From Mesotaenium endlicherianum (Eukaryota): a DNA stretch of 34,239 nt. The DNA lies in contig WELA01003378.1 in NCBI GenBank assembly GCA_009602735.1, forward strand, positions 251,712-285,950. The letters are read 5' to 3'. The position numbers and the translations under genes were made by a program. This document shows positions 8,040 to 34,239 of this stretch, piece after piece. Positions within the stretch are counted from its first letter, which is position 1, and each line of letters starts with the position of its first letter. The notes under the pieces were generated by a model. It did no database searches, was not told the origin of the DNA, and saw nothing but the letters and a program-made list of their open reading frames with translations.

Positions 8040-8430
8040 TCATACCACCATGGAGTTAGTGTAGTCATAATATCATGCACAGGATTGAGTACCTTGACTG
8101 CTAAGAACGTAGTAGTGGGAGTTGTAGCATGCAATACCTGGTGTAAGTAAATTTAAAGTGTGAGTGTGCTTGAGAGAGAAGTGAGTGTGCGCGCAGTTGA
8201 GAGTGGAGGATGGCTACGTAACGAGAATCGGCTAGTTCTCGAGATGTTTATCCCACTCTCTTCAACTTAATGTGTTAGGTGGGTTGCCTATCACAACTAT
8301 CGCGTACTGTCAACTACTGTCACTTTCTGTCACTAATTGTTACTTTCGGCCACGTTTGGTTGCATTTCCCCTCCAAGTTAATTGGAGACAGGATCTCCTA
8401 GCACCTTCTCATGTCAAATTGCAACGACAG

Positions 8431-9678: not shown

Positions 9679-10422
9679 TGAAAGGGGCAAAGTGCCATAG
9701 TGGAAGCGTAGTAATTCACGAGGAAAGGAACTAGTTGCAATCATCTCAAAGAGTGCATCGGCATATCACTAACAAAGCTTAGGAAAAATACTCAATATTT
9801 TGAGTAGCAAGAAACTGCTCACAAATGATGTAGGATGAAAGGTCTTGTCATCACAAACCCGTAGCAATTTACAGAAGTGAAAATTGATGAGAAACAAAGA
9901 AGTTATGCCTATTTATAACTTTCTGCCTAAGTGCTCCCCTCTAGGAGGAAGCTACGGATTTTCCTAAGTGTTCGTCAAATTGTCACTTCCAGAATATTCG
10001 TGAGTAAGCCACATCAGTCTAATCTGACGTGTCGGGCCAAATTGACGTCCACATACATGTATCGACATTACTATAATATTTTATCTTAGACGCGCTAGGC
10101 TAAACCGAAACTTCTAGGTAAATCGACCTAGTCGGCACTCCGCGTCAGCCGAACTTACGTGAAGGTTCGATTTCATTCTAACGGGCCAGATCGCTCGACG
10201 CTGTCGGTCAATCCGATGGTCGCGCTCACCGCAAATTAAGGACAGTCGTCCACCGACCTCAAAACTAATTAAACTTCATAAATCCGTAACTCTCTCAATA
10301 CTTGACCAAATTAGATGAACTTTATATCAAAATGACCACAAAAATGCACTCTATACTACTATACAAACAAAACATACTTTCATGAAACTCAAAAATACAC
10401 TTTATAAATATATGACCTTACA
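9679..10422 (-). mobile_element. Solo LTR of family B (744 bp)
   Basis: tgaaagg...ccttaca ends; flanks CGGAA/ACGAA, each one mismatch from the AGGAA empty site in the other copy (~24295); integrase resumes on both sides; TATAAATAG on the minus strand at 9909-9917; homologous to 30813-31273. Confidence 0.88.
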
Positions 10423-12869
10423 ACGAATGACCAGCTTCAGTCTGCCTGAAGTGGTTTCAGTTACCCAAACCCCTCTCTTTAGCCTATACCCGAGTGCAGT
10501 GGCAGGACACACACCATCAGTGGGGCTGGACTCAAATGTTGCGTCAGAAAGGTAGGCTTTCCTAAGTTATTCAAGGAAGGATTATTTTACCTTTAGTGAA
10601 GTGAGTGCACAAAGGACTTTATCTACAGCATGCTGACTAAAGTTCCTTTCTTGCAAGTCAGGTCGTCTAGAGAGTGCATCAGCAAGATTCAATTTTCCTG
10701 GTTTGTAGTCAATCTGGACTTTGAACTGCTCCAGCATCTGCCTCCAGCGGTTCTCCCTCCTCGACAGCTTGGACTTCTTATGAAAGGGAGTCAAAGCTAA
10801 ATGATCAGTAATCACCTTAAAAGCTTTACCATGTAAGTATGCTCTCCATTGTTTGAGCACATGAATGATAGCTAGGAGCTCGTTATCATGCACAAAATGG
10901 TTGACTACAGCTGCGTTGAATTTCATAGACTCATACAGCACAGGGTCCCACTCCTGCCTTACCTTACCATCCTTCGTGGTTTTGTCTGCAGGCTACAACA
11001 AAATAGCACCCATGGCAAAGTCAGAAGCATCAGTGACTACCTGCACAGGTTTGCTGGGGTCATACACACATAAGACTGGGGCAGAACAGAGAGCACCTTT
11101 AAGGGTCTGGAAGGCAGCTTGCTGCTCTTCCCCCCACACATACTCTATGTTGTTCTTAGTAAAGTCAGCCAATTTAATAGCCTTTGTATAATAATTCTCA
11201 ACGAATCTCCTATAGTAGTTAGCCAACCCAACGTAGGATCTAACTTCCGAGACAAACTGTGGTACTGGCCAGTCCCTTATGGTCTGGACTTTCTTAAGAT
11301 CCACACTGATGCCTTCTTTACAGACAACATGGCCCAAGAATTCAATGGTTTCCATAAAGAAATCACACTTGCTCATTGTAGCACATAACTGATTCCTTCT
11401 CAGAATGTCCATGACTGTCTTTAAGTGCTCAGCATGCTCAGCTTCATTTTGAGATAAAATTAAAATATCATCCCAGAAGACTTGCACAAACTTATCCAAG
11501 TAAGGCCTGAATATGTCATTCATAGCACCCATGAAGGTTGCAGGAGCATTAGTCAGTCCAAATGGCATCACATTCAACTCATAGTGTCCATAACGTGTGC
11601 GGAAGGCAGTCTTGTGTTGATCTTCTTCAGCAATTCTGATTTGATGATAACCACTCTTCAGATTTATCTTACTCAACACTTTAGCACCAAACAGGGTATC
11701 AAGCAAGACCTTAATTCGAGATAAAGCATACTTGTTCTCTACCGCAATTTTGTTAAGAACTCCGTAATCCACACACTTTTGCATACTAACATTTTTCTTC
11801 TTAACGAATAGGATGGGTGCACCATAAGGTGATTTCCTGGGGAAAAATAGCCATTTCCTTCCAGTTTTGCAATCTGTGTTTTTAACTCTTCGCTCTCCAC
11901 ATAAGTCAAGGCATAAGTGCATTGCCACGATGGCTGACTCCCAGGTAATAGATCAATCTTATGATCTACTTCTCTCTTAGGCGGCAGTCCTGGAGGCATA
12001 TTAAAAACTATACAGCAGTATACTCAGCAACAATTTTTGCAGCAGTAGGGTGCTCCGGAGTGATCACCTTTTTCTCAACCACTTCTTCCTGTTGAGGAGA
12101 TACCTCTTTTAGCAACAGACAGAACATTCTGTCTTTCTTCCGGTTCTCGCTTTCAATGAACTCCATTGCATTCAGCAATTTGCATCCTCCTGGAAGCCTC
12201 TTCTTTTCCTTCATTTGCCATCCATACAGGTGAAGAGGAAGAACACTGGTGGGTGCCAAGTTCGTCTGCCCATCACTGGCTCCTCTTACTGTAACTGTAC
12301 CTCTGCTCCAACACACTTCAGCTTGATGTCTGTTAAGCCAGGACCTGCCTAGCACGAGATCATAAAAGCCAGTGTTGAGTACCTCAAATGTAAGCGTTTC
12401 AGTTAGAATTCCATTGCCAGAACCTAACTGGACCTCAATAGGCTTGGTTATAACTCCTCCCGAGATACTTGAGGCATCTCCAAGGAATACTTCTCTATTC
12501 CCTTGGATGACAGTAGGCAGCCTCAGCCGCTTGACTAAGTCCTTATGGATAAAAGTATGGGACGTCCCTTCGTCAACAAATGCCCTCACCTTTGCTACCT
12601 GCAATCATACAATGTAGTAGAATAGGGGGAACTCACTTTTCCTGACTTTCGCATTGTTCTCCTGACTTGGCAAAGAAATGTTGGACATCAGGTGGACCAA
12701 GACCATTCAGAGTGTGCACTCTCCGAAGATCCAGTTTTGTTGATGGTCTCTTTCATTCGTTTGTAAGGCATGCATATTGAATCCAGTGCAGCACGACTCA
12801 TAATACCTGGTACGAGGGCAGCTAGTGAAGACTCACTATCTCGAGCATCCTCACAGTCAGTAGACTAGA

Positions 12870-14328: not shown

Positions 14329-14340
14329 GCTCCGATACCA
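14329..14340 (-). promoter_or_regulatory. PBS, tRNA-iMet type (TGGTATCGGAGC)
   Basis: 1 nt from the LTR end. Confidence 0.9.
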
Positions 14341-14341
14341 C

Positions 14342-15075
14342 TGTAATGAATCGACTTACCAATAGCCGATTATCAATCAATAAAGATTTCTATATCAGCT
14401 AGTAATCTTCATGGTAGTTTTTGTTAATCGATTCAACAGCAAAAGACAACACACCAACAGTGAACAATACTCGCAAGTTAAATGCAAGTAAACTAGCAAC
14501 AATATTGCAATCAATAAACTCATACATAAGCAGGATTAGAAGACAGTGCGCATCAATGGCTTCTCTCCTTGGATTCAGATATCTCTCAGTAAGCAGTACA
14601 AGAGACTTGGCCTCGTTTCCGAATCCCGAACTCGAGAGCAATGCCTAGCATATGTACATGGAATGAGTTTACTGTTTTAACGGCAAGTGCGATGGCACCG
14701 CCTACACGGGAGCTAACCACGTTGGTAGGACCTCGGCTATAACCAAATCCACAGCCATCTCCCATCATCCCAAATCGCCATCCACCTCAGGGGTGTCATC
14801 TGGCCACTCATCTAGCACACCACACTTTGATGCATAGCTAGGTAATTTGCTGCTGCCGAGTACGGCAGTCAGCTGACCGTCAAATAATGTGTCAGCAAGC
14901 TGACCGAAGTCAACAGGCTGACCTAATTGACTTCAGCCTGCTGCTCTCAACTGAGTCATTTAACTTAGTATCAAATATCCAGCAGACTTAATATTAACTA
15001 AAGTTTAGCAGGCTTAACTTATTTGACTATCGTTCAAATGAATATTATATTTATGCAATATACTGATTCATTACA
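14342..15075 (-). repeat. 5' LTR, family A (734 bp)
   Basis: tgtaatgaatc...gattcattaca perfect 11-bp terminal inverted repeat; right flank CTACC. Confidence 0.95.
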
Positions 15076-16120: not shown

Positions 16121-16335
16121 CCTGCCATGACCACCGTCTGAGGCTATTAGCGTACTTTGAGGAGCACTAAGCAACAATCGAGATGATGGTGCGGACACAC
16201 GATCAGTCTGTAGTCTCTGTACTCTGTGAGGCACCATTTCGGCTTCTTTGTCTGCAAGAAGCCGCCATAGATTACTTCTTGTAAATGTTTAACTTTGTGT
16301 ATTAGTCGACGGGAAGACAAACTCTGTAAGTTGAC

Positions 16336-19300
16336 ATGGACACTGATGGCCCTCAGGAAACTTTGGGCTCTCAACCAACATGCAGCAGCGCCTCTCAGCA
16401 AAGAGGCAAAGGCAATCAAGTGGCTGATTCCTTATTTACTGATGAAAGGTCTGAATGGTCTTATGTAACTGTTGTGCCGAACTCTTCAAGGTCACGGAAA
16501 CAAAGAGTTAGATGTTAGTTCTATGATTTTGAGTTAGCAAGCGGTTGCACTAGGATCCGCCTATATCTATCTCATATCCCTCGTCTTGGCATTACTACGT
16601 CTACAAAGGTAGATGCTGATGTTGCAGCTTATATGGCTAAAGTGGTCCGTGAGATGATGTTAAGAAAATAGCTAAGAACAAGGAAGAAGAGGAACTGGCC
16701 TGCGTGAGGGAGTTGCGTCATAAGTCAGCTATGGTAGATTTGTGGGCCAAAAAGAATCATGCAACCTATGTCTCTGGAGGAAGTATCCAAGAAGTTGTTC
16801 AAACCACATTAGAGCAGGCTTTCAATGTTTCTAACAGGACTTTGCAGATCAAGTCATTGCTCGGTTTTTTATGACAATGGGTTGGCATTTAATATTGATA
16901 GTAGCTTGTCTTAGGTAGAAGCCATTAGATTTGTTTTGAAAGCCGGACCTGGCTATGTGCCTCCTAAAATTGATCGCCTAAGAACTTGTCTCTTAGATAA
17001 AGAAGCTGCTGTCACAAAGAAGCGGCTTCTATTGTACGTTGATAGGGCCGGTGTGTATGGGTTCACAATAACCTCGGATGGTTGGACAGATCACACTAAA
17101 AGACCCTTAATTAACTTCATGATATCATCTCCAGATGGAGAGATGTTTGTGAAAGCAGTGAATACCAAGAATATGACAAAGAGTGCTGCATATCTTGCTG
17201 GCTTATTTCGGGAAGTGATAGACAAACTCGGCCCTACCAACATCCTCTAGCTTTGTACTGATTCTGTAGCGGTCTGCAAAGCTGCAGGTACCTTACTCCT
17301 CCTTGTTCTTCATTTATACATCGTTTCTTCCACCTTGTGATTCTTGCAAGCGGTTTTCATTTTTTGGTTTTGTGAATATTGTATCTCAGTGTGCTGTTGC
17401 CAGTTGCTGTATGCTTGTATTTTGCACTTTTTACTTTATTGTCTCAGCTGTCTGAGAGTGCTGTTGATTACACTTATGTGCTCCTATGGTTTGCTTTTGT
17501 AATTGTTGTCGTAGTATGGATCTGTCTGATGGTGTTCTTCGCATTTTTTCTTTTGAAATGTATGTCGGAGTGTGCTACTATGTGCTCCTATCAAGTAACT
17601 TTTTCAGCCTTTGAATATCATGTCTCACTTGTCAAAGAGTGCTGCTATCTGCTCCTTTTTTCAACTTTTAAAATTGTTGTCTTACTGTGGAGCTGTTTGC
17701 TGCTGTTTGCTTTTCTTTTTTGCTTTTCAAATGTATGTCGGAGTGTGCTGCTGTCTGCTTGATATCGACTACTTTGTTCAGCTTTTGAATTTCTTGTGTG
17801 ACCTGTTAGAGAGTGCTGTCGTGTGCTGTTATTTGCTCCTTTCTTAAGCTTTTAAAAGTGTAATTTTGGTGTGGAGCTATCTGCTATGATTTTCTATATT
17901 TGGTTCTATAATTGTTGTCTAAATGTGTTGCTGTTTGTGGCTGTTTGCTCTTTGTTTTTGCGTTTCAAATCTATGTCAGAGTGTGCTGCTGTGTGCTGCT
18001 ATCCGCCATTTTTTCCAGCTTTTGCATTTATTGTTTGAGTTGTCTGAGAGTGCTGCCGGGTGGTGCTATCTGCTCCTAATTATATCTTTTGAAGTCATAA
18101 TCTGAGTGTGGAGCTTTCAACTGCTGTGTGCTTTGCTTGGTCTTAACTTTTGCTGTCTAATTTTGTGTCTGAGTGTGCTGCTGTCAGCTGCTGTGTACTC
18201 GGTTTGCTCTTTATTTGAGCTTTTGATTTTTGTTTATATCTGTGTTGCTGTTAGCTGCTGTGTGCTCCTATTTCTAACTTAGTTCTTAAGTGCTGGTCTC
18301 TGTGTCACGTGTGCAAGGAAACTCATTGAGGCAGAGTACCCGCACATGACATAGACTGCTTGCACTGCCCATGGAATTGATGTGCTTCTGGAGGACATGG
18401 CGAAAGAATCCTAAATCAAGGATTTGGTGGATAGAGGAAAGCAGGTGGTCATCTACATCCGGAACCACCACAAGCCTTTGGCGCTATTCCGGAAAGAGTC
18501 AACGCTAGAGTTGAAGATGTGGTGTCAAACAAGGTTTCTCACAAGTGTCATCATGCTTAGCTGGCTCTACGAGGTAATATGCTCTTGCTCATCTGTAATT
18601 TTTTTACTGCTAGCAGCTGCTAGTTTGTCCCAGCTTGTCTAAATATGTGCCCCTTTATGTTTATGCCTGCTATGCACTTCTTCTTGCTACTGCTATACGT
18701 TTGTGTCATTAACTGTCTGCTGCTATTTTCTGGTGATTTGTGCTGTCTACTGCTGTGTGCTACTATCTGGTGCTGTGTGCTCGCAGCTACTGTCACCTGC
18801 GTGTATGCTGCTGTCTTTGTGCTGGTTTGTGCTCTTTGTTGTTGTGTGCCACTATCTGCAGCTGTGTAATAACGTTGCTGTCTGCTCATGGGTGCTGTAG
18901 GCTGCTGGTGTGAGAAACTATATACAGCTGTTTAGTGCTCTCTCTTCCTGTCTCTCGTTGTGTGCTGCTGTCTGCTAGGGTTTGCTGCTTTCTTATGGTG
19001 TAAGCTGCGGTATTGTGTGCTACTATCTGGTACTGTGTGCATCGTGCTCCTGTTATTTGATGAATGTCGCTTGTTGCTTGTTGGCTGCTGCTGTGAGATG
19101 TGGTTCTCGATCTGTTACTTTGTGCTGCTGTTTGCTGCTGTGTCGTCTGCTGCTGCCTGCCATTGTCATGTTTGTTTGTTTGTCTTCTCACTAATGGTGA
19201 CATTTTTTGTGTTATATGATATACAGATGCAGCAATCTTTGAAAGTGGTGTTGTTCAGGAATGGGTGAAAAGAGCATCTGCGCAGGCTTAATCCTTCCCA

Positions 19301-19621
19301 CAAGAAGGATTGCCTTGCTATGATGGCGGTCATAAATGATGACACCTTTTGGGAGGAGGTGAAGCTGCTGCTAAAGATCACAGAGAAGCTAGTGAAGCTC
19401 CTCAGACATGTTGATGGCAATCAACCTGCTGTGGGTCTTGTTTACAACGCTATGGCGGAGTTGCAAGAGCAAATCAAGAGCATGGATGATGAACTTGCTG
19501 AAGATGAGCTGGACAGGCTGGTGGAGATAGTGGAGACCAGGTGGACCTCCTTTCACTCTCCCATATGTGCTGCTGGTTACATGCTTCATCCATTGTGGCA
19601 AGACACCCTGACATTGGACAT
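16336..19621 (+). pseudogene. hAT transposase pseudogene (BED finger, DUF659-type catalytic region) with two introns (~17288-18316 and 18574-19226)
   Basis: EWSYV..RVRC; GYVPP..RLRT.LLD; TITSDGWTD..RPLINF; CTD; YPH..TACTAHGIDVLLED; TRF; FWEEV..LLRHVDG; RW..FHSPICAAGYMLHP; multiple stops. Confidence 0.9.
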
Positions 19622-19753
19622 GGGGCTAGACCATTTCCATTTTGACCACTTTACCAAATGGAATTCCATTTCGAGCCAAATCGGCCCATTCCAATGGATT
19701 TTGTTCCATTTGAGGCCTCAAATGGATTTTGCTATCCATGGAAAGCAAAATCC
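19622..19753. repeat. Cluster of CCATTT/AAATGG palindromes; candidate DNA-transposon end
   Basis: Palindromes at 19656-19671, 19705-19726 and 19724-19753; starts GGGGCTAGACC where hAT homology stops. Confidence 0.65.
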
Positions 19754-20389
19754 CCCGGCACTCCTCGCCGATCCACTGCGAAAGGGAACTTCGGAATCTA
19801 TTGCTGTGTTTTCCGGCCGTCTGCGGCTAACATGTTGCTATATGTCTTCCACTCTCGATCCGCAGTCCCGAATTCGGATGATTGGTATCATTGTTCTGAG
19901 ATTATGACACAATTTCACGATTCACTCCGACATCCAGCATTATCTCTTAGTTTGATGGTAGTTTGCGTCGGTGAACTGATTCGCGCATTGCGACACTATT
20001 TGAGCCTCCACAATGACATCCGTTATGGGTGGCGTGTCGTTACTGAGGTGGCGGTTAAAAATGTAGTCACTGTGAGTGTTGAATGCCGTTTGTTGTCGTC
20101 CAACGTCGTACGCGTTCGATTAGGGGGGAGCCCGTACGCTGTACATGCAGAGAGCAAGTGTCGGCCAGTGCCGACAATGAAGATGATCTAAGCTCACGTG
20201 AGGCACAGCGTTTGCAAAGATACATGGTATGACGACAATAGCCGAAGTTCTTGCATAGCACTTGGTGCGAACATGGCACGTATTCATCTGATTAAGTAGC
20301 GGATCTTCAACCCGGATGTACGACACCTGCCTTGAAGCTACTCATGTTATATTTGTCTTGCACTGCATTCAGGCCCCCCCATTCAAGAT

Positions 20390-21333
20390 AGCAGCATCCT
20401 ACATTCGCGTTCCTGCCCCCTTTTTCGGAGAGGAGTGGGCGACCCGAAAGCATGGCGGGCACGCTGACACTATCTTCCATGAAGGCTTGTGCTTGGGATG
20501 GAGCTGCATATCTCTGGAGCCATATTCCACCGCCATGGCCAGCGAAATGAAGGCGACTATTACTGAGTGGACGAAGATAGAGTGTCACAATATCACGTAC
20601 CCACAATTACAACGCGTGCTACATTTGAGTGCACGTATGATTTACACAATTACGTATATGCTTTTGTCTTCAAGAACCCTAGGTTGCACAGTGATGCTAG
20701 TATAGAGATTATTAGGCGCTGTAAACTGCCCCACCAGATTTCGGCACAATAGTCCACTGCACTAAGCTAAGCTTGGGTTCTTGGTAAAATCTTGGCTGCC
20801 ATGCATGTACGGCCCCACTCTGATGGGCAAATGGTTTCACCTGAAGAGAGACGACAAAGAAGAGTACCCCTGAAAGTGTGCAGTCTGTTTGCGGGTATAG
20901 GTGGCTTCGAGTTGCATTCTACATCCAGGGGCACGAAATATGTGTCTTTGTTGAAAGTAATTCCCACTGTCAGGCCCTCCTCAAGGAGCACTTTCCTGGT
21001 GTTCAAGTCCATTCGGATGTAGTGAGCATGGGCAGTCTTCCCCCAGGCATCGACCTTATCCTGGCGAGCTTTCCCTGCCAGGATGTGTCGACGAGAGGTA
21101 ACACAGGCGAAGAGGTTGCGTCGTTGAAGCAAACCAATCTCATTGTACACTTGTGGCGCCTCATAGAACAGCAGAGAGTGCCTATCGTTGTTCTGGAGAA
21201 TGTCTCGGGGCTGCTCACGAGGAAAACACAGAGTGGGACTCCCTATGTATCCCATGTCGCTCACAATCTGCACGCCTTGGGTTACAATTGGGCCTGTAGA
21301 GTCGTGCAGTGCCTGTCCTTTGGACAACCCCAA
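20390..21333 (+). pseudogene. C5 DNA cytosine methyltransferase, 5' half (possible N-terminal extension; motifs I-VII and start of VIII)
   Basis: LKVCSLFAGIGGFEL (I); FVESN (II); SDV (III); DLILASFPCQDVS (IV, catalytic PC); VVLENVSGLL (VI); LHALGY (VII); FGQPQ; 1-bp deletion at ~20914; start position uncertain. Confidence 0.92.
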
Positions 21334-22054
21334 TGAAATGAATCGCCCTACCAAATACACAATTTACAATTCATAAAGATCTTTATATCAGCAAGTAATC
21401 TTTATGGTAATTTCCGTTAACTGGTTAAACGGCAAAGGACAACACACTAGCAGTGAATAATACTCGTAAGTCAAATGTGAGTAAACTAGCATCAATAATG
21501 CAAATCAGTAAACTCATACATAAGCAAGGTTAGAAGACAGTGCATATCAATGGCTTCTCGCCTTGGATTCAGATCGCTCTCAGTAAGCTGTACAAGAGAG
21601 TTGGCCTCGTTTCCGAATGCCGAACTCGAGAGCAATGCCTAGCATATGTACATGGAATGAGTTTACTGTTCAACGGTCAGTGCGATGGCACCGCCTACCC
21701 GGGAGTTAACCACGTTGGTAGGACCTCGGTTAACCAAATCCACCGCCATCTCACATCATCCCGAATCGCCATCCATCATAGAAATGTCATCTGGCCATTC
21801 ATCTAGCATACCACACTTAGATGCATATCGAGGCAGTTCGCTGCTACCGAGTACGGAAGTCAGCTGGCTGTCAAAGAATGTGTCAGCAAGCTGACTGAAG
21901 GTGACCTCAGCCTGCTACTTCCGGCCGAGTCATTAAACTGATATTAAATATAAAGTCCAGCAGAGTGATCATTAACTAGAGTTCAGCAAGCTGAATTTCT
22001 TGAACTATATTATTTAAATGAATATTATGTCAATCAATATACTGATTCATTACA
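21334..22054 (-). repeat. 3' LTR (721 bp)
   Basis: TG...CA ends; highly similar to 28246-28975. Confidence 0.97.
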
Positions 22055-22067
22055 ATCCCTCCAACTT
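22055..22067 (-). promoter_or_regulatory. Polypurine tract AAGTTGGAGGGAT
   Basis: Abuts the 3' LTR. Confidence 0.85.
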
Positions 22068-22068
22068 A

Positions 22069-23810
22069 TCATGTTGTCGCCTCGACAACACTAACACAAA
22101 TAACAGCGTGCTGTCCTTTCCGTCCCCATCCTGCTGCCATTAGGATAGGAGATGTCCCTGAGGCTCTATACTCAGGGGAGCCAGACATCGTCCTGTCTTG
22201 GGGTATTCTGAAGCCTGTCAGAGAGGGAGGTTTCGTGTAAGGACCCCGCGGAGAACGCAGTAACGGGGCTGTTTCCTCCTGCACAGTCTGGAGGGAGGCA
22301 GCCTTCTCCTGGGCAGCCCTCAAACTGACAGGTACGTATACCGGCATCCCAGAAGGATGTTGCATGACATGAGCCAAGGGTACATGCCCTTTCTGCGAGG
22401 GAGATGCTGGCAGGCCTCTGGCTATCTCCCGAGCAGCCCTCCTGTCTGCTCTGTCTGACTGGGTCTTCTTGCCTAAAGATGGGGTCTGTCCTCTGGCAGT
22501 CCCCAGCCAAGTGATATCCTTCTCTTCAGCGAGTTGCTGCATGGCCAACCCCGTCTTCTCCCTTATAGGGGATGTGGCAGGCGTCAGGATCACGGCGGGG
22601 CTAGTGTCCTTCTCCTCGCTTTCCTCCTCGTCTTCCTCTGACTCCTCCTCCTCTCCGTCCACGGGTTCCTCTGAGACTTCTGGGGTCTAATCTGTCAGCT
22701 GTTCCAGCTCTTCCCGAGAAAAAGAATATCCTACTGACCTTCCCCTTTTGGGTGCTGGTGGGGGCTGCTGAGCCCGGACCGCATAGAGGTCCTTTTCCTT
22801 CTGCTTACTTGCCCATTTGGCATAAGCGTGCTTCCCTTTGGAGAATGACTCTCGGGCCCTGCTTCTGTCCCCCTCCATGTCCTGGCTCATGCAGTCTCTG
22901 ACTCCATCCAATCTTGGGTCCCTGGCCGCAATGTGAGGGGGCAATACTATGTTCCCCTTTAGGTCTGTCAGGAAATCCTCATCCGTCGCCCTGTCATTCT
23001 GCTGGTCCCTCATGTTGATGGTCATCCACCGCCAATCGGTGGGCTTTTGAAAGAAGGCAGGGTCTGTCCTTTTAAGAGTACAAGGGTACTAGTGCCCTGC
23101 AAAGTCCAGCTGACTGGTTTCCCTGGCCACGAATTCCCAGCTCCTCCTCTCCACCTCCTTGTACATGGCCTTGAACCTGTTATGGGGTGTTGAGTCCTTG
23201 AAGCTGTCCGCGTCCATGGGGATCATCCTCATGACCCTATCTGCCCCCCAGATACCAGGAATCGAGACAGCTCCTGCTTCGTTCAACTGGGCCATTGCAT
23301 TGGCCTCTCCGATGGTATATTTACCATCCTGGCGTAATCGTGGTAGAGGAGGAGCCCTGTGCTAACCTCTATATACTTGTCAAAGTTCTCGGATGTCTCC
23401 CCTTCCTTCAGGAGGATTTCCTTCTGCGACTCACTGCGACTTCTCTGGGCATACTTGAAGGCCTCCTCCAGTAGATCAAAGCCCTTGCCCAACACTGTGT
23501 AGCGGTAGCTGCTGATTCTCCTCTGCTCTTCTTCTTTAGCCTTCTGCTTCCGCTTCTCCTCAGCGTGCCTCTCCTCCTCTGCTTTCTTGACCTCCTCTGC
23601 AGCTCTTCTGTCCATTTCTTCCTGTCTCAGTCTGGCTTGTTCCTCCTCCTCCTTCTTCTTCTGTGCATCCCGCTGTTGTAGGAGTCGTTGTGATTCCCGA
23701 GCGGTGATGGAAGATGATTCGATGTCTCCACGGAATTGCAAGTATTCTGCATGTGCCTCTTCCTCCCTTCTCTTCCTCTTGAGTTCCGACTTTTGAGTCA
23801 TCCTGCTCAA
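22069..23810 (-). pseudogene. Extra ORF3 (~580 codons), unknown function; one frameshift (~23320) and two stops (23089, 22687)
   Basis: ORF pieces 23283-23810, 23089-23295, 22687-23025 and 22069-22662 join using the copy at 6875-8039 as a guide; the final stop lies 1 nt before the PPT. Confidence 0.85.
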
Positions 23811-23907
23811 TCATAAACACAATGCAGTTAGAGAACTTAGAGGTGAATTTTGAGTCTCTGTCTGAGATGATATTAGAAGGGAGCCCATGTTGGCATACTA
23901 CATGGTT

Positions 23908-26757
23908 CTAAAACTGTCTCGGTGTTTCGAGTGCAGTCACTTTGACAGTGGTGGGGATAAAAATGACCATTTTTGTCAGTTTATCCACGACTACCAGTAT
24001 TGAATCATGCCCATTGGCCGTTCTTGGTAGTGAGACCACCCAGTCCATGGATATAGTTTCCCAGCGTCCAGCTGGGATGGGCAGCGGTTGCAAGAGACCT
24101 CCAGGTGGTGTGTGCCGAGACTTATTTCTTTGACACTGGTCACAGGACATGACATATTTCAAGACCTCCCGGGGTAATCCCTCCCAATGATAATGTTTTG
24201 CCAGTTTGCCAACCGTTTTGGCCCGCCCCAAGTGTCCACCCAGGAGATTGTCATGAGCTTGACTCAGTAAGAGAGATCTTATTTCCAAGTCGTTAGGAAT
24301 GACCAGCTTCAGCCTGCCTGAAGTGGTTTCAGTCACCCAGACCCCTCCCTTGAGCTTATACCCGAGTGCAGTAGCACGACACATACCAGTAGTGGGGCTG
24401 GGCTCAAATGTTGGGTCAGAAAGGTAGGCTTTCCTAAGTTGTTCAAGGAAGGACTTTTTCACCTTTAGTGAAGTGAGTGCACACAGGACTTTATCTACAG
24501 CATGCTGACTAAAGTTCCTTTCTTGCAAGTCAGGTCTTCTAGAGAGTGCATCAGCAGGATTCAACGTCCCTGGTTTGTAGTCGATCTGGACTTGGAACTG
24601 CTCCAGCATCTGGCTCCAGCGGTTGTCCCTCCTCGACAGCTTGGACTTCTTCTGAAAGTGAGTCAGAGCTAGATGATCTGTAATCACTTTAAAAGCTTTA
24701 CCATGTAAGTATGCTCTCCACTGTTTGAGTACATGAATGATAGCTAGCAGCTCTTTATCATGCAGTGAGTACTTCATCTCCACTGGATTAAATTTCATAG
24801 ACTCATACAACACAGGATGCCACTCCTGCCGCACCTTACCATCCTTTGTGGTTTTGTCAGCAGGCTGCAACAAAATAGCACCCATGGCAAAATCAGAGGC
24901 ATCAGTAACCACCTGCACCGGTTTGCTGGGGTCATACACGGCTAGCACTGGGGCAGAACAAAGGGCATCTTTAAGGGTCTGGAAGGCAGCCTGCTGCTCT
25001 TCCCCCCACACATACCCGATGTCTTTCTTAGTAAGGTCAGTCAGTTTACTGGCCTTTGTGGAATAATTCTCAATAAATCTCCTATAGTAGTTAGCCAACC
25101 CGAGGAAGGATCTAACTTCAGAGACACACTGTGGTACTGGCCAGTCCCTTATGGTCTGGACTTTCTTAGGATCCACACTGATGCCCTCTTTACTGACAAC
25201 GTGGCCTAAGAATTCAATACTTTCCTTAAAGAAATCACACTTGCTCATTTTAGCATATAAGTGATTTTTCCGCAGAGTGTCCAGGAGTGTTTTTAAGTGT
25301 TCAATGTGCTGAGCTTCATCTTTAGATAAAATTAAAATATCATCCAGGAAAACTTGCACAAGCTTTTCCAAATAAGGTCTGAAAATGTCATTCATAGCAC
25401 CCATGAAGGTGGCAGGAGCATTAGTCAGTCCAAATGGCATTTCTTTGAACTCATAGTGTCCATAACGTGTACGGAAGGCAGTCTTGTGTTCATCCCCCTC
25501 AGCAATTCTGATTTGATGATAACCACTCTTGAGATCTATCTTACTGAACACCTTAGCACCAGACAGGGTATCAAGCAAGTCCTCGATTCTGGGTAAAGCA
25601 TACTTGTTCTTTACTGTAATTCTGTTCAGGGCTCTGTAATCCACACACATCCGCATACTGCCATTCTTATTCTTAACAAATAGGATGGGTGCGCCGTACG
25701 GTGACTTACTGGGAGAAATATAACCATTTTCCTCAAGCTCTGCAATCTGTGTTTTCAACTCCTCGCTCTCCACATACAAGCCATACGTGCGTTGCCAAGG
25801 TGCCTGACTCCCAGGTAATAAATCAATCCTATGATCTACTTCCTGCTCGGGGGGTAGTTCTGGAGGCATATTAAACACATCCGTGTACTGAGCAATAACG
25901 TTTGCAGCAGTAGGGTGCTCCGGAGGGCTTACCTTTTTCTCCACCATTTCTCCAGGTTGAGGAGGTACCTCTCTTAGCAGCAGACATAACATTCTGTCTT
26001 CCTTCTGGTTCCAGCTTTTGACGAACTCCATTGCATTCAGCAACTTGCATCCTTCTGGAAGCCTCTTGTTTTCCTTCATTTGCCATCCACACAGGACAAG
26101 AGGAAGAGCACTGGTGGGTGCCAAGTCAGTCTGCCCATCACTGGCTCCTCTCACTTTAACTGTACCTCTGCTCCAACACACTTCAGCTTGATGTCTATTA
26201 AGCCAGGACCTGCCTAGCACGAGATCATAAAAGCCAGTGTTGAGTACCTCAAATGTAAGCGTTTCAGTTAGAACTGCAATGCCAGAACCTAACTGGACCT
26301 CAATAGGCTTGGTTATAACTCCTCTCGGGATACTTGAGGCACCTCCAAGGAATATTTTTCTATTCCCTTGGGTGACAGTAGGCAGCCTTAGCCGCTTACC
26401 TAAGTCCTTGTGGATAAAAGTATGTGACGCCCCTCCGTCAACAAATGCCCTCACCTTCCTACCTGCAATCATGCAATGCAGTAGGATAGGGGGGACTGTC
26501 TTTTCCTGACTTTCGCATTGTTCTCCTGACTTAGCAAAGAAATGTTGGACATCAGGTGGAACAAGAGCATCCAGAGTGTGCACTCTCTGGACGTCTATAT
26601 TACTGATGGTCTCCTTTATCTGTTTGTCAGGCATGCATAGTGAATCCAGTTCAGCAGGACCCATAATACCTGCTACGAGGGCAGCTAGTGACGACTCACT
26701 ATCTCTAGCATCCTCACAGTCAGTAGACTGGATTACTGACTGTTGCTGTCTTTTAAA
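23908..26757 (-). CDS. pol: pol polyprotein (PR, RT, RNase H, N-half of integrase); truncated; probably reached by -1 frameshift from gag
   Basis: 918-aa [64 protein letters not shown]...CDQC; SMDWV; frame stays open up to 26778. Confidence 0.93.
26716..26757 (-). promoter_or_regulatory. Predicted -1 ribosomal frameshift signal
   Basis: U UUA AAA (26757-26751) in the gag frame, 7-nt spacer, 10-bp stem ACAGUCAGUA/UACUGACUGU with 8-nt loop. Confidence 0.8.
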
Positions 26758-28211
26758 GGCTGGTCTTTTCTCTCGACCTTAGGCAGGTGCTTGACCGGAC
26801 ACTGTTCTCTGTAGTGGCCTTTCTGCTGACAATGGTAGCAAGTAGATTTTGCTGAGGCTGGTCTCGGCTTAGTCCTACCACCACCCCTTCCATAGCCACC
26901 TCGAGAGGGACCACCTCTACCTCTAGACTGAATAGCATTGTACTCATACTCATATTCATCACCCTGATTATCCTCAGCCTGGTCTCCTTCAACTGCATTG
27001 TAGGAACCGTGGGGCTTTTTGACAATCTTAGACACCAAAGCGTTACTCTGGCGCTTGTGATTGAACTGCTGTTGATCCCAGGCGTTAGCATCCTGGATCA
27101 AGTTAGCCAGTTTCTCATACTTTTTCTGAGCAAAATGACCAGAGACCTCGGATTTCAAGCCATACCTGAAGTATGCTATCCTATACCGTTCTGGCAAATC
27201 TGGCTGCTTCATCATGTTCTCTTGGAACTTTTGAGCAAACTCAGCAACTGAAGTGGTCTGCTTCAGTGTCAGGGAGATCATCGCATAGATAGCTTTCTCC
27301 TGCTGGTTGATGACATCAAACTTCTCATGCAACTTCTCGACAAACTCTACCCACGTAGGGTCACCGAGTTGCCGAGCCTTACGCTCTTCCTTCCAGTAAA
27401 GCCACCAGTCTGCGGCACTGCCTTTCAGTAGCGCACCGGTGTGCCTGACCTTCTCGTGATCTTGCAGTTCTGGGTAGTTCTCCAGCCACTGCTCAACATC
27501 CGCGAGAAACTTGATCAGGTAATATTTTCTGTTTCCCTCAGAACCATATTCCTGGGGAGGTTTCGGCTTGGGCTTACTAGGCCCTCGGCCACCACCACTA
27601 GTGGTTTGAGACCCCAGTTGGTCTCTGTCCCGCAGTAGGGACATTATGATTCTTTTGTCCTCCTGCTGGGACTGATACATGGTCGCCATTTGCGACTGCA
27701 TCTGAACGAACAATGCTCCCAAGTCTACATTTTGGGGTGGTAGATTAGCAAATGCAGCAGCAGCATTGGCATCTACTCGCTGAGTAGTGTCCTCAACAAT
27801 CCCTCTCGCTCCTGCAGCAGCAATTCCTGCCGCATTCAGCCGGTCACGTATTTGACCTAGGGGTACATTGAGTTGTACAGCAGGGGGTGGATTCTGAACA
27901 TTGGCCCTTGATGCCATAAGTTCTTCAACAGTGCGCTCGTCAGCTGGCTGTCCTTCCCTCCTTTCTGTATCTTCAGCGGCCATTGCTACTTGTTCAGCTT
28001 CTAATCTGGCTCTCTCCTCCTCAGCTTGCTGTGCTGCGACTGCGGCAATAGCAGCTGCCTCATCTGCAGCCTCTCTAACTATAGTATCTGCTACTGCTTC
28101 AGAATAGGTACGGGTTCTCGCTACATGGCTTTCCGCCTGGTTTTTGACATTCTCGTTATCCTGGTTCTCCATGTCTTGGGAGTTGCTAGTTTGAGACCTT
28201 GTCCTTACCAT
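26733..28211 (-). CDS. gag: Gag (492 aa)
   Basis: [43 protein letters not shown] tract; [14 protein letters not shown] zinc knuckle. Confidence 0.95.
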
Positions 28212-28232
28212 ACAAAGAAGATTGTGATAACT

Positions 28233-28244
28233 GCTCCGATACCA
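28233..28244 (-). promoter_or_regulatory. PBS, tRNA-iMet type (TGGTATCGGAGC)
   Basis: 1 nt from the LTR end, about 22 nt before the gag ATG. Confidence 0.9.
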
Positions 28245-28245
28245 C

Positions 28246-28975
28246 TGAAATGAATCGCCTTAACAAATAGACGATTTACAATTAATAAAGATCCTTATAT
28301 GGACAAGTAATCTTTATGGTAATTTCCGTTAACTGGTTAAACGGCAAAGGACAACACACTAGCAGTGAATAATACTCGTAAGTCAAATGTGAGTAAACTA
28401 GCATCAATAATGCAAATCAGTAAACTCATACATAAGCAAGGTTAGAAGACAGTGCGTATCAATGGCTTCTCGCCTTGGATTCAGATCTCTCTCAGTAAGC
28501 TGTACAAGAGAGTTGGCCTCGTTTTCGAATGCCGAACTCAAGAGCAATGCCTAGCATATGTACATGGAATGAGTTTACTGTTCAACGGTCAGTGCGATGG
28601 CACCGCCTACCCGGGAGTTAACCACGTTGGTAGGACCTCGGTTAACCAAATCCACCGCCATCTCCCATCATCCCGAATAGCCATCCATCATAGGGATGTC
28701 ATCTGGCCATTCATCTAGCATATCACACTTAGAAGCATATCGAGGCAGTTTGCTGCTACCGAGTACGGAAGTCAGCTGGCTGTCAAAGAATGTGTCAGCA
28801 AGCNGAGCAAGCTGACTTAAGGTAACCTCAGCTTGCTACTTCCGGCCGAGTCATTAAACTGATATTAAGTATAAAGTCCAGCAGACTGATCATTAACTAG
28901 AGTTCAGCAAGCTGAACTTATTTAACTATATTATTTAAATGAATATTATGTCAACCAATATACTGATTCATTACA
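28246..28975 (-). repeat. 5' LTR (730 bp, including 9 extra bp around an N at 28804)
   Basis: TG...CA ends; followed by TSD CCCAA. Confidence 0.97.
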
Positions 28976-28980
28976 CCCAA

Positions 28981-29991
28981 GCTAGGGAGCGGGTCGTCAT
29001 TCTTGCCAAGCGCTGAGGAGATCCGCTTAACCTGCTATTGACTTCTCGCACGTTTCGCAATCAGACAGAAATATGCATCTGTGCCCATCACAGCTTGGTG
29101 GTGAAGACAGAGTACTAGGGAGTGTGAGTATCGGGATTGAATGAGGCATCGCCTTACAAGGGATACAGCCTCTGTCCGACAGTCACGTGCGTGAACTCCA
29201 ACCTCCTCGTCGTGGCAGAGAAGGTGGGCCGCACCTCTCGCCTCCAGGTTCTAGGCGTGGAGGACATAGAGACCCTGCAAGAATTCCCAGTTGGCTGGAC
29301 GAATTGTATGGCCCACGCAAAGCGTCATCTTTACCACTTAGGTAATGCCATTTCGGTAGGCCATTCGGTATGGATCGAGAGTAGAATATCTCATGCCTAC
29401 GAAGACAAGTACAAATTTAGCAAGGACCCGCCGTTGCACGAGGTGGCCGCCTGGCCGAAGGCTGCCTGGCAGATGCAGAGAGGTGATTTTAGGATACATC
29501 AGGTGATCCACGTGTCGACGCTGGTTGATGCACCTCCCGTTGCTCCCATACCCGGTTCTCTCGTGCATAGGTCAATCGAGGAACAAAGGTGCGCTAAGAG
29601 CAAACTCGTGCGGTGGTTGAATTGGCCACGGTGTGACAAGGAGTGGGCAAGCATTGGAAGCGTGGCACAGCCCCTGAGACACGCGTTGCTGGCGACGTGT
29701 AGTGCGTCCCTCTGCCAAGCGGCCAACGATGCGCTGTCCACACGCAGTGAGCCCTGCGCTACGCCACAAGTCGAGGGTGGCCTCACGAACAAACAGTGGG
29801 CCTCGCTCAACCTGCTGTCTACTGGAAGGCTAAAGCCCGTGAGAGGCAGCTGTGGTGCCCTGAGGTGCGCACTGCCTTTGGGCCACTTTGTGGAGGAGGA
29901 GATTAGACTAAATAAAGACTCAGGTCATCTTACTTGTGACACGTGGCTTTCTGGGGAAAAGTGCACATGGCGAGCATCAGCACAAGTGTAA
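28981..29991 (+). pseudogene. C5 DNA cytosine methyltransferase, 3' half (rest of VIII, target-recognition region, IX, X, C-terminal extension)
   Basis: (PQ)ARERVVILA; LGVEDIETLQEFPVGWT (IX); LYHLGNAISVGHSVWI (X); a single frame with stops at 29014, 29116 and 29125. Confidence 0.9.
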
Positions 29992-30812
29992 TAGAAAGCA
30001 TGTGAGCACGCTGGTGGGGATTGACGGCCTTCACTGGCAGAGAGGAAACAAGTATCCCAGTATCTATAAGGACAGGTGCTCGATAGGACTCTTTTGATGA
30101 CGGCACCCAGTGTGTGGGAGGAAGTTAAAATAGCACTTTGTAGTTTGCCATGAGTATGTTGTGACGTTTCTTAGTGGGTGATTTGCTTCTACTAGTGATC
30201 ATTTGAGTGACGATTATTTGGAATGCTGCCAGACTTGATCATGCGCTGAATTCACTACACAAAACTCAGAGGTAGAGTACCCTGTCGGAAAGTACTGGAC
30301 CTCAACCTCATACTCAATGCTTGTTGGTGTGCTGGAACTCAATTGAACAAGCAGCTGTGATTTCATATGTGCTGGGCTCTTGTGATACAACTTCCACGAG
30401 GCCACTAAGAAACAACTGGCTTCTGCTGCGGGATATCATTAACTTTTCTAAATCTGCTCAATCCCAGGGGGGAGAGACATGATCCTGAATACCTATCAAA
30501 CACACTGGCACCTGTACACGAGTAGGCGATACAATACAAGGGACTCTAGTTACAACCATCGCAGTATTCCAAGGACCTTCCCCTGCATAACTACCCTCAA
30601 CTATGACAACTAGCAGCATTGTTGGATTCAGCCGGCTGGAATGAAGAATCAGATTGACAACCGCGCGAAATGGGACTAATCCTAAACAGCCCCCAGGACG
30701 GAGTCAAGTAGGGAGGCAATTTTGCCTTCTTGGTCTGTACAATGTTTGCTTCCAACGACAGGCTGGGGTTGTTGACCACAAAGGTTGTACACTTTTCGGA
30801 AAGAGCTGCGGT

Positions 30813-31273
30813 TGTAAGGTCATAGGTTTATATGGTGCATTTTTGAGTTTCATGAAAGAAAATTCTGATTGTATAGTATTGTAGAGTTTCTTTTTTTGGT
30901 CATTTTGATTTAAAGTTCATTGAATTTGGTCAAGTATTGAGAGAGTTATGGATTTCCAAAGTTTAATTAGTGTTGAGGTCGGTTGACGACTGTCCCTAAT
31001 TCGTGGTGAGCGCGACCGTCGGATTGACCGACAGCGTCGAGCGATCTGGGCCGTTAGAGTGAATTCGAACCTTCACGTAAGTTTGGCTGACGCGGAGTGC
31101 CGACTAGGTCGATTTACCAAGAAGTTTCGGATTAGCCTAGCGCGTCTAAGTTAATATATTCCAGATATTTTGATGCATGCATGTGAACGTCAAATCGGCC
31201 CGACACGTCAGATGAGACTGATCTGGCTTTCTCACGAATATTCTAGAAGGAACCATTTGACAAACACGTGGAA
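30813..31273 (+). repeat. Partial family B LTR
   Basis: Starts tgtaaggtcata; reverse-complement homolog of 9961-10422. Confidence 0.88.
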
Positions 31274-31536
31274 TGCCTGCACTCATAACATGGAAGTTGA
31301 GCCCTTTCTAAGACCGTGTGGCCAACAAGCAGAGTCAGTCGACAGTCTCGCATGCACATGCTCTCAAGGGGTCAGGAGGCTGTGTACCTCTCATGGAGTT
31401 TTGGCTTTCTTCTTGGCGGTTGTGGCCGGGGACAGATTGGAGTTCCTTGCCGGTCCCTTGCACACCGGTGCTTCTGTTAACAGGGATGCTAGCCTTCTCT
31501 TCTGCTCCAATAATTGCAAACATCCAAATAGCACGT

Positions 31537-31551
31537 GAGAGAGAGAGAGAG

Positions 31552-31616
<65 letters not shown>

Positions 31617-31699
31617 NNNNNNNNNNNNNNNNNNNNNNNNNNNNNNNNNNNNNNNNNNNNNNNNNNNNNNNNNNNNNNNNNNNNNNNNNNNNNNNNNNN

Positions 31700-31730
<31 letters not shown>
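31537..31730. repeat. (GA)n microsatellite spanning an assembly gap (N 31617-31699)
   Basis: Seen directly. Confidence 0.99.
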
Positions 31731-31732
<2 letters not shown>

Positions 31733-31827
31733 TTGGGCCACTGTTAAGCTAACAAGCAGACCAAAGGAATTGAGCAACACAGGCCATTTTACACATGCAC
31801 TTGCACATGGACAAAGTCGTGTCTGTC

Positions 31828-32462
31828 ATGGCATCAACATCAGACAAGGGCAAAGCTCCATTATTAGAACCTGAGAGATCACAGGGAGATGTAGTGCCGG
31901 CTGTGGATGTAGTGGCAGCTCTCGAGCCAATTGATGACGATCCAGTTGTGGAGATGGGGCCAAATAGGACAAGAGAGTTTAATAGAGTCACAAATGATAT
32001 TGCCCAATGGAAGAAGGAGTTAGTACAGATGTCTGAAAAAGCCTCATACGATTTGGGTAAATTCCGAGACTTGAGATCAGAAGCAATTCTGTCCCACAGA
32101 AAGTGTCTGGGTGACATATGGGCACCCAAACGCGTGCAAAAATAACTGTTGAAGCTGAGGGTGAGGATGTTGCTGTGGAAGAAAGCGGTTTAAGATTCAA
32201 CATGTGCTCTGTCTGCTACATGGGAGGAGTGGAGGTAGGCAATTCTTGATGTGAAGGACTTGAGGTGGACAATTCCTGTGTTGTTTGTGCCCAACATGCA
32301 ATGGCAGGTAGTTTTGCCACTTTTGCGCCTCCATCTAACACACTAAATGCTACTGTGGATGTGCAGTTGTGGAGGGCAGGGTCGGAGGATGATGATGGTG
32401 CAACCTGGAAGCAGAGAGCGATTGGAAGCTGTGTAGGGTGAGGGCCTTTTACGAGGTCCTAA
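31828..32462 (+). pseudogene. Degenerate ORF of unknown function, probably TE-associated
   Basis: MASTSDKGKAP...; after a probable frameshift in the A-run at ~32140 it continues with CSVC and CVVC motifs. Confidence 0.35.
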
Positions 32463-33726
32463 TAGTTGTTAATATGTGGCCCTTACTGTTGCAAGGCCCC
32501 TCTTTGAGCTCCTTGTACAGTAGTTCATATTGTTTTACGGGCAGGTTACAATAGTTGCAGCACTAGCGTCTGAGTCAAATATTTGTACATACGCTTTTGA
32601 GAAGCTTGTGTTAGGGGTGTAGGCGCCTTGTTGCTACAGAGTAGCATCATTTTATCCTCCTCACTTTTGGGGATGTATGCAGTCGAAGTAACGGTTGAAA
32701 ATCGAATCACCTTCATGCCTCCTCCAGTGCACATGCGTGGTTGTGTGAAGTTGAGTGACGAATAACGTAGAGTAATATAATATCAGAAAGTATGCATGTG
32801 TACTTGTGTTAGTGTCCTGCACTGCAGCACTTGGAGTCTCTGCGCCTAGCAAATTTGCGGTGTGCATCATGGAATCAGTGTATGTTACTAAGAACAGCAC
32901 CTGTGGACAAGAGTTTTATTCTTTATTTTATTAAAACAATGTACAAGTTGTGGTCCTGCACCATATACTCTAGTACTCCAAATCTTCTTCCGACAAATAT
33001 TTCCGCCATACTGTTGCATTAGCTTTCTACACATGCTGCCAGAGCATCTCTTTTAGCACCTCTTATTGTACACAGGCCTTTGGCACTCCTCTTGCTCCCG
33101 CCTTGTTCAGTCCACAGCAAGCAGCTCCACAGCACGCAGCTCCCGGGGCTTCGTTTTGTAATCAGAGTCTGCTCAGTGCAAATGAAACGGGTGACAATGT
33201 ATCTTCCAGTGGCCCCAATATTGGCATGCTATCATCCCTCACAAGCGCTCCAGTTTCTTCAACTCACAATCATGTGTAGACCTACTCTCGTGCAGATTTT
33301 CACGAGAGGTGCACCATTGATGCTGAACTCTTGAGACATGTGTGCATCAGCGAACTTGCGTGCAACAGGGAGTCCAATCGCTCTTTTGCCCACCTGAGCT
33401 TGTCGTCTCTACCTCACTGAGCTGTGTTGCCATGTCCTCTTTTTCCACGGAGAACACGCGGCGTTCCTTTTGCTGCTGGTTCTTCTTAGTTGTTGGAGCA
33501 GCGGAACCCCCGCCTAAAGTTGCAGCCTGCTTCATTTTCTTGTTTGTCTGGGCTGACTTCCTAGCTGGAGGCCTCCTACGTGGCGGCGCTTTGAATTTTC
33601 GCGTCCTTTTCTTTAAACTGGTCGAACACGTACCAGTTGAGGCATCTTGTTCACGAGTAAAACTGTAGTTTTTGGGTGAATGCATTTGGGGTACACTTAA
33701 CCAGGAGGACAGGAGTTGTTGTGGAG

Positions 33727-34239
33727 ATGCCAAGGATATTGGGTAGTGGTAAAGCACCACATCAAAACGAGAAAGTACAATGCACTCAATGTGGAGAATG
33801 GAGGAGGTAAAGAGTGGTTCGTCATCATGCGTGTAAAGCCGAATCAGCTGATGAAGAAGGATTGCGCAGAGAACAAGAGTGGGCAAGCCATGTTGAAGAG
33901 AGTGATGAGAGAGCACGCCTTAGTGAGGCAGATGAGGCACGCCGACAATTAGGGGAGCAAGAGGAAGATCTCAGGCAAGCGCAAATAGAAGCCTCAGAAG
34001 CAGCGCGCAAGGATGCTTAAGAGCACAAGAGACAGCCAAAAGACTAGCTGATTTAGCACTACAGGCAGAGGTACGAGAACAGCAGGCAGCTGTGCGGGCA
34101 TCGGAGAGGGCTGCCGAGGCTACAGCACACGCAGCAGGAAATTTAGCTTTGAACCGTAGTGACGAAATCATATTAGAGGCCACAGAGAAAGAGTGGGGGA
34201 AGTTCACCAGCGCAACGTGCTTTTGCAAGTGTGGCTACG
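33727..34239 (+). pseudogene. Degenerate ORF with zinc-finger-like start and coiled coil; runs off the window
   Basis: MPRILGSGKAPHQNEKVQCTQCGEWRR*RVVRHHAC, E/A/R-rich helix, then CFCKC; one frame with two stops. Confidence 0.45.

Follow-up and report, generated by a model that had tools for sequence, protein, structure and literature searches.

The window analysed here, a 34,239-nt stretch of the Mesotaenium endlicherianum genome (contig WELA01003378.1, positions 251,712 to 285,950 of the forward strand), contains a C5 DNA methyltransferase gene that is bacterial in type and, in this copy, dead. With moderate confidence, we propose that this copy was carried as cargo by a dispersed multi-copy element, likely a non-autonomous DNA transposon of the CMC (Chapaev-Mirage-CACTA)/CACTA-like type. 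The analysis showed the anatomy of the gene, its membership in a bacterial restriction-modification (R-M) subfamily, several dispersed copies and one sharp terminus of the element. The window is a nest of transposable elements (TEs) with about 47% GC, and an Rfam search gave 0 matches. An earlier sequence-only reading had described an intronless, prokaryote-type methyltransferase that was split by a retrotransposon and was probably mobile cargo or horizontally acquired.

The gene was located in four parts:

20801..20914, forward strand: N-terminus of the methyltransferase with motif I (20888-20905) and a frameshift at about 20914 (ATGs, profile alignment)
20920..21333, forward strand: motifs II-VII and the first half of motif VIII, with the catalytic PC at 21073-21078 and ENV at 21196 (PF00145, PDLC03324)
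28981..29496, forward strand: rest of motif VIII, a diverged variable region with three stops, motifs IX and X, and the tail WPKAAW at 29452-29469 (PDLC03324, tail profile)
29497..29991, forward strand: C-terminal extension of 164 stop-free codons, Cys/His-rich near its end (shuffle test)

Motifs I (FAGIGG, 20888), IV (FPCQDVS, 21070), VI (ENV), VIII (FGQPQ at 21319-21333, continued by ARERVVILA at 28981), IX (LQEFP, 29275; GWT, 29293) and X (LGNAI, 29338) were in canonical order, as had been claimed. With its breaks read as X, the whole gene aligned to positions 3-317 of a 383-position profile of relatives with 205 bits, and its halves joined at profile positions 153/151. The alignment had no intron-sized gap, so the gene was read as intronless. 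The N-half matched PF00145 with an E-value of 7.8e-20 (72 bits, against a curated cut-off of 22). The C-half had no Pfam match but was recognized by the R-M model PDLC03324 (below). The gene start given before, 20390, had to be moved. The nearest in-frame ATGs upstream of motif I are at 20801 and 20831, one of which is probably the start, giving a span of about 510 codons, and the feature as a whole runs from 19604 to 30812 or beyond. In agreement with the first reading, this copy is dead: it has a Ty3 insertion, the frameshift at about 20914 and three stop codons (29014, 29116 and 29125).

The C-terminal extension was stop-free in 33 of 20000 shuffles, and the other forward frames held 7 and 9 stops. 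It had no Pfam match and no relative in a full HMMER scan of the C-terminal frame against 1.84 billion representatives. AlphaFold models were poor (pLDDT 50 for the C-half and 38 for the tail) and gave no confident fold. The protein Atlas returned no result for the tail or for P0072, an offshoot of the subfamily described next.

The best matches of both halves belonged to one bacterial subfamily, PDLC03324. The N-half was compared by word-indexed search with proteins 243-2000 residues long, and 63 matches came out of 270 candidates (best, 42% identity and 97 bits). The HMMER scan with the C-terminal frame gave 8 matches, all within its first 130 residues and all from this subfamily or its offshoots. 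All 63 and 8 matches were short stand-alone methyltransferases. When the halves were compared with 5027 PADLOC models, the N-half scored highest on PDLC03324 (E 1.6e-27, model positions 25-159, 94.4 bits; next model, 59.5), and the C-half matched this model only (E 8.5e-9, model positions 161-330, 32.7 bits). The two halves were thus collinear on the same Type II R-M model, on which the protein P0001 scored 489 bits.

The matched relatives have in common a GFYWTEG-type variable region and a WPxAA tail. A WPxA[AGS] tail was present in 66 of 84 family loci and in 0 of 76 other methyltransferase loci. On the tail profile the window protein scored 12.1 bits over the first 30 of 86 positions. The maximum of 76 outgroup proteins was 2.1, none of 500 shuffles reached the score (maximum 3.0), and the family minimum was 26.5. 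Two trees made by fast searches from 88 and 61 chosen sequences, with prokaryotic and phage outgroups only, both placed the window protein inside the subfamily clade, though on a long branch (SH-like support 0.84 in the first; SH-aLRT 87.4 and aBayes 0.99 in the second). The subfamily is common in bacteria. It has at least 592 GTDB loci, and the best 80, which were inspected, span many phyla. A Vsr homologue was found in 65 of 84 family loci and an AAA-type nuclease in 4 of 84. Among the best 80 IMG/VR viral loci inspected, 4 belonged to the subfamily.

Like members such as WP_180942066.1 of Sinorhizobium mexicanum, where dcm is followed by vsr, the window gene has motifs I-X in order, WA.R and GDP around motif VIII, E.LQ.FP.GWT and WPKAAW, at 34-43% identity. 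Unlike them, it has no match to the GFYWTEG...IPSPPAI target-recognition region (TRD), its last approximately 60 family residues are replaced by the 164-codon tail, and it is multi-copy in a eukaryote. Nothing like Vsr or a nuclease was found in the arms of its element. As judged by these sequence comparisons, the gene derives from a specific Vsr-linked bacterial R-M subfamily with two subfamily features missing, the variable region and the Vsr neighbour. Of the earlier label, a bacterial or phage Dcm-like enzyme, the bacterial part stood and the reference to Dcm in general gave way to this subfamily. The bacterial relatives give no guide to the target sequence, since the variable region is altered.

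Two observations were made on the subfamily itself. A tight offshoot (the P0079 group, alignment A3, loci L161-L163) has SPC in place of FPC and lies on gene-dense metagenome contigs, possibly of large DNA viruses; six tested neighbours of these loci had no Pfam match, and IMG/VR held no relative of P0072, P0079 or A3. Another member, P0073, has 607 residues, and by eye its C-terminal part resembles a fused Vsr nuclease.

The element carrying the gene and its surroundings were resolved as follows:

19604..19780, forward strand: left terminus of the carrier, starting with CAC, with clustered short direct and inverted repeats (contig ends, word count)
19604..20800, no strand assigned: left arm with no recognisable gene and a 137-codon stop-free frame at 20292-20702 (multi-copy cover)
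29992..30812, no strand assigned: right arm as far as traceable, with no recognisable gene (multi-copy cover like that of the gene)
30813..31267, forward strand: second high-copy repeat piece, starting with TG, LTR-like, interrupting the right arm (88% alike to 9968-10424 inverted; depth jump)
16330..19603, forward strand: decayed hAT-type transposase, the insertion target of the element, whose frame runs to ...MLHPLWQD at the boundary (DUF659, 2.4e-24, 5' part)

The left end was defined with contigs from four DNA runs (X1-X4). Contigs ceased to match at exactly 19604 in X2 (5), X3 (6) and X4 (6), and their flanks were long (median 255 nt) with a mutual agreement of 0.45-0.48. Position 19604 is also where the hAT-type frame breaks off. 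Because of this shared sharp end, the unlike flanks and the interrupted hAT frame, we read the gene as cargo of a mobile element. Up to 18 differing contigs were found at one site over 19604-21333 and 28981-30802, with summed depths of about 440-1930 at the listed X3 sites. An X1 contig identical to 18900-19226 had a depth of 38, and long contigs had depths of about 20-95. These values suggested approximately 10-30 copies, a rough estimate from contigs of one sample in which depth does not equal copy number. Mobile cargo or horizontal origin, as first proposed, was thus supported by the multiple copies, the shared end, the unlike flanks and the bacterial matches, with the amendment that the carrier is a separate, non-LTR-looking element. 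A single-copy pseudogene, also considered then, does not describe a multi-copy sequence with unlike flanks.

Without the Ty3 insertion the carrier measures at least 3.56 kb, from 19604 to at least 30812. The left arm had no Pfam match below E 0.1 in six frames, the right arm had no Pfam match, and no reverse transcriptase (RT), integrase or viral domain was found in any frame of the arms. CMC and Pack-type elements have clustered subterminal repeats and captured genes. The carrier begins with CACCC, and the first 177 nt from 19604 hold 8 TCCAT/ATGGA words, more tightly clustered than anywhere else in the window (overall average, 0.38 per 180 nt). A 5'-CAC terminus with a subterminal repeat cluster resembles CMC elements, whose termini are CAC...GTG with an invariant 5'-CAC in the accessible excerpts of PMC6004678, whereas the CACCC of the carrier differs from their CACTA/CACTG. 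A 9-of-10 match to the inverse terminus at 32104 was rejected, as it had neither a target duplication nor a repeat cluster.

Several contigs came from copies with less damage. The empty-site joint 21328-28976, without Ty3 and one target copy, was covered by 2 contigs each in X1 and X3, and 3 X2 contigs continued from the left half of the gene into the right half. The frame at 20914 was kept by one extra base in 2-6 contigs per run, and position 29116 was a sense codon in every listed contig (3 and 4 contigs, all of the depth). The 3 X2 contigs, read by hand, differed from the window across motif VIII at 4 sites in 10 codons, all synonymous. This is a hint, and the sole one, of selection on the gene. 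A second contig group keeps the WAYR of the family where the window has WACR and differs at other residues. Of the 15 listed single-base differences within the frame, 4 were synonymous, 10 were non-synonymous and 1 fell on a stop. They were mostly private to the dead copy and were not used on selection. The CpG observed/expected ratio was 0.35-0.49 in three surrounding elements and 0.56-0.79 in the methyltransferase gene; the depletion in the former would fit a host that methylates repeats.

The insertion in motif VIII was described by three features:

21334..28975, reverse strand: Ty3/Gypsy long terminal repeat (LTR) retrotransposon, with gag at 26736-28259 and pol at 23911-26778 (LTRs, gag and pol domains)
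21329..21333, forward strand: target-site duplication CCCAA, left copy (sequence)
28976..28980, forward strand: target-site duplication CCCAA, right copy (sequence)

The insertion is 7,642 bp long, starts with TG and ends with CA. Its LTRs (21334-22054 and 28246-28975) were identical at 692 of 721 aligned bases (96%, Kimura two-parameter distance 0.041), and FGQPQ joins ARERVVILA without it, as the first reading had found. The Ty3 family was very high-copy in the DNA runs, and a search with its gag found no relative among 7997 candidates. Ty3 destroyed this gene copy and is not its carrier, because it sits within the gene and other copies lack it. As the hAT frame breaks at 19604 and Ty3 splits the gene, the order of insertion is hAT, then the methyltransferase element, then Ty3.

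Nine raw RNA runs bear the same species label, and expression was checked in two of them (X5 and X8; 6% and 13% of each read, 80% likeness), which may come from other strains or stages. In this check, proposed with the first reading, Ty3 parts were covered by reads, and the gene was almost bare. RNA depth was 0-0.35 over its left half and 0 over 29175-30802. The methyltransferase family looks silent in these two samples.

This silence weighs against a transposon that carries the gene as working cargo, and so do the following points. Many copies have deletions of 63-489 nt, and no single fully intact copy was present among the contigs. The contigs were short and came from one sample of one study, possibly the source of the assembly itself. 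The empty-site joint has just 26 letters on its short side. The synonymous stretch is a single one chosen post hoc, and the other contig group at 21293 differs by several amino acids. The window yielded no inverse (right) terminus, no target duplication and no transposase; the right arm breaks off at 30813, ahead of an assembly gap. The terminal CAC, a mere three letters, is on its own a weak CMC sign. For the enzyme, the TRD profile (GFYWTEG type) had no match in the window protein (family minimum, 74 bits), the protein sits on a long branch with an unsupported sister group (30.7 / 0.48), and its whole-profile score of 205 bits is not above those of some outgroup proteins (up to 240).

Passive copying was the first of the rivals weighed. 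A bacterial gene might have been domesticated elsewhere as a host gene and then copied by a Pack-type transposon, its copies never serving the element; we consider this unlikely. Such a history would suit the internal deletions of many copies and the lack of an intact copy or transcript in the contigs and two RNA runs. The new tail and altered TRD could be host adaptations, and domesticated bacterial methyltransferases occur in Marchantia and Adineta in the accessible part of PMC12344493. Against it, the whole gene is present from start to stop and intronless, and with almost no reads at 80% likeness the two RNA samples gave no sign of a closely related, expressed parent gene. The synonymous bias between element copies, in one stretch, points the same way. 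Position 19604 might also be the end of a far larger virus-like or giant element (a giant-virus insert, Polinton-like or Plavaka-like) that reaches beyond 30812 and has the methyltransferase as one of its genes. We regard this as quite unlikely. Neither the arms nor 30813-34239 gave, in any frame, a Pfam match to a capsid, polB, packaging ATPase, integrase or other viral domain, and the arms are gene-poor. The best BLAST matches were ordinary bacterial members with no P0079-group protein in the top 40, P0072, P0079 and A3 lacked IMG/VR relatives, and just 4 of the best 80 viral loci fell in the subfamily. What keeps the larger element in view is that its right end and the remainder of the hAT are not in the window, that the offshoots P0072 and P0079 group near the window protein in both trees without support, that P0079-group loci are gene-dense with unrecognised neighbours, and that orphan DNA methyltransferases (DNMTs) often lie in viral inserts (accessible parts of PMC11244446 and PMC12344493).

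Descent from an ordinary eukaryotic DNMT (DNMT1/CMT, DNMT2, DNMT3/DRM, DNMT5, DNMT6 or ChloroDNMT), as a processed pseudogene or divergent paralogue, is very improbable. An intronless gene among retroelements would fit a processed pseudogene, the trees held no eukaryotic DNMTs, and DNMT6 and ChloroDNMT lay outside the direct comparison. In the ranking of solved structures, the N-half preferred M.HhaI (3.8e-5) over DNMT2 (0.015) and DNMT5 (0.24), and no DNMT1, DNMT3, DRM or CMT chain appeared at E up to 1. Pfam found no BAH, chromo, PWWP or SNF2 match in the methyltransferase or the arms, which bears out the earlier remark that the enzyme is unlike DNMT3/DRM and has no BAH or chromo insert. All database matches were short stand-alone enzymes, the best of them in the bacterial subfamily, and the subfamily tail is present. 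By search scores, and not by trees, a eukaryotic DNMT origin appears largely refuted. Bacterial contamination or a chimeric assembly is extremely improbable. The assembly gap at 31617-31699 could invite such a reading, but the gene is decayed, multi-copy with unlike flanks and cut by an LTR element of the host whose target duplication is perfect, and no bacterial neighbour gene accompanies it (no tblastn match at E 0.1 in 183 loci).

In C5 methyltransferases, motifs I and X bind S-adenosylmethionine, the motif IV cysteine attacks C6 of the flipped cytosine, and ENV and the motif VIII arginines hold the cytosine. Under the favoured reading of a bacterial gene as transposon cargo, the gene would have been gained horizontally from a bacterium, directly or via a virus, without Vsr or nuclease neighbours. 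Its TRD would then have been rewritten and the 164-codon tail gained, and the element would be mobilised in trans by a transposase encoded elsewhere. Because the motifs are conserved, the enzyme of intact copies would be predicted to use this chemistry and to methylate DNA cytosines, probably those of the element itself. The benefit may be self-marking, so that new copies are tolerated or quiet, an idea borrowed from the proposal for retrotransposon DNMTs. A stronger version is doubtful and is offered tentatively: a nuclear cut-and-paste transposon family may have captured a bacterial R-M methyltransferase, given it a new TRD and a Cys/His-rich tail and kept it under selection, with intact copies writing 5-methylcytosine in a context not produced by the enzymes of the host. 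If true, this would be the equivalent, on a DNA transposon, of the retrotransposons that bear DNMTs, and its bacterial donor subfamily would be traceable.

TE-borne and orphan DNMTs are already a described class, and the window gene is outside the described retrotransposon classes. The accessible text of PMC5890265 describes DNMTs in LINE, DIRS and Gypsy elements (SymbioLINE-Dnmt, SymbioDIRS-Dnmt3 and KnitGypsy-Dnmt3) and mentions DNMT-bearing DNA transposons of marine viruses. EpiLTRs carry a DNMT sister to DNMT4 (excerpt of bioRxiv 10.64898/2026.05.21.726589). Like the enzymes in these two sources, the window gene is an intronless C5 methyltransferase amplified as TE cargo. As far as the excerpts go, theirs are located within ORF1 or Pol and are either derived from DNMT3, sister to DNMT4 or specific to dinoflagellates. 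In contrast, the window gene stands alone with no RT, integrase or recombinase in the arms, is traced to a named bacterial R-M subfamily, and has in its Ty3 a destroyer. Laterally gained orphan DNMTs are described in the accessible part of PMC12344493, in which only Klebsormidium, among eight streptophytes listed, has any (6), and 10 of 18 Amoebidium DNMTs lie in giant-virus inserts (excerpt of PMC11244446). According to these two excerpts, orphan and endogenous giant-virus DNMTs are, like the window gene, lineage-restricted, domain-poor, laterally gained and mostly silent. The window gene differs in having no viral genes around it and in belonging to a small dispersed nuclear repeat with a sharp terminus.

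Bacterial R-M enzymes have also moved into eukaryotes as the N4-methylcytosine (4mC) methyltransferases of Adineta vaga and Marchantia polymorpha (PMC12344493 and PMC10952607, in part). From the same portions, these are N4 amino-methyltransferases and domesticated host genes, whereas the window gene is of C5 type and element-borne. A hornwort "DNA methyltransferase" said to be horizontally transferred (PMC7027989) was set aside as an unrelated PF02870/PF01035 repair protein; as far as their excerpts show, PMC7027989 and PMC10952607 bear on other methyltransferases only. The 4mC enzyme of Adineta acquired an additional domain. In a search that was without most subscription papers and Repbase, we found no description of a nuclear DNA transposon bearing a C5 methyltransferase of bacterial R-M origin.

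The DNMTs of eukaryotes are considered to descend from several bacterial donors, with donors and route rarely traceable (accessible part of PMC12344493). In the present case the donor subfamily is identifiable by name and the gene lies on a dispersed element of small size; together these would illustrate one route, from bacterium through transposon cargo to a remodelled enzyme. One genome could then address whether elements keep a methyltransferase for their own benefit and whether a swapped TRD yields a new methylation motif. Proteome-based DNMT surveys would miss the family because its copies are broken and repeat-masked.

Further features were observed in the surrounding nest. Five related LTRs (686-1405, 3741-4485, 14338-15075, 21334-22054 and 28246-28975; 80-95% alike) belong to the one very high-copy Ty3 family, are nested and of several ages, and are covered by RNA reads. 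In this family, integrase and the 3' LTR are separated by an additional broken coding region, seen at 22072-23810 (reverse strand) and 6883-8059 with 76% identity and without a Pfam match. At 1967-2416 (reverse strand), a Ty3-like pol end carries a PHD finger (PF00628, 4.4e-7) at the position of the chromovirus chromodomain. A 743-bp LTR-like insertion at 9682-10424 lies in an older Ty3 pol, and its inverted partial copy at 30813-31267 is the one that interrupts the methyltransferase element. Between the two hAT transposase parts, 17300-19230 contains about 2 kb of degenerate TG/C-rich repeats, probably an expanded intron; the 3' exon, which had no Pfam match, we take to be hAT from its motif AAGYxL. 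A GA microsatellite at 31537-31730 encloses the 83-base assembly gap (31617-31699). The remainder, 31740-34239, consists of unrecognised broken frames, one of which has a CxxC motif and a charged helical stretch.

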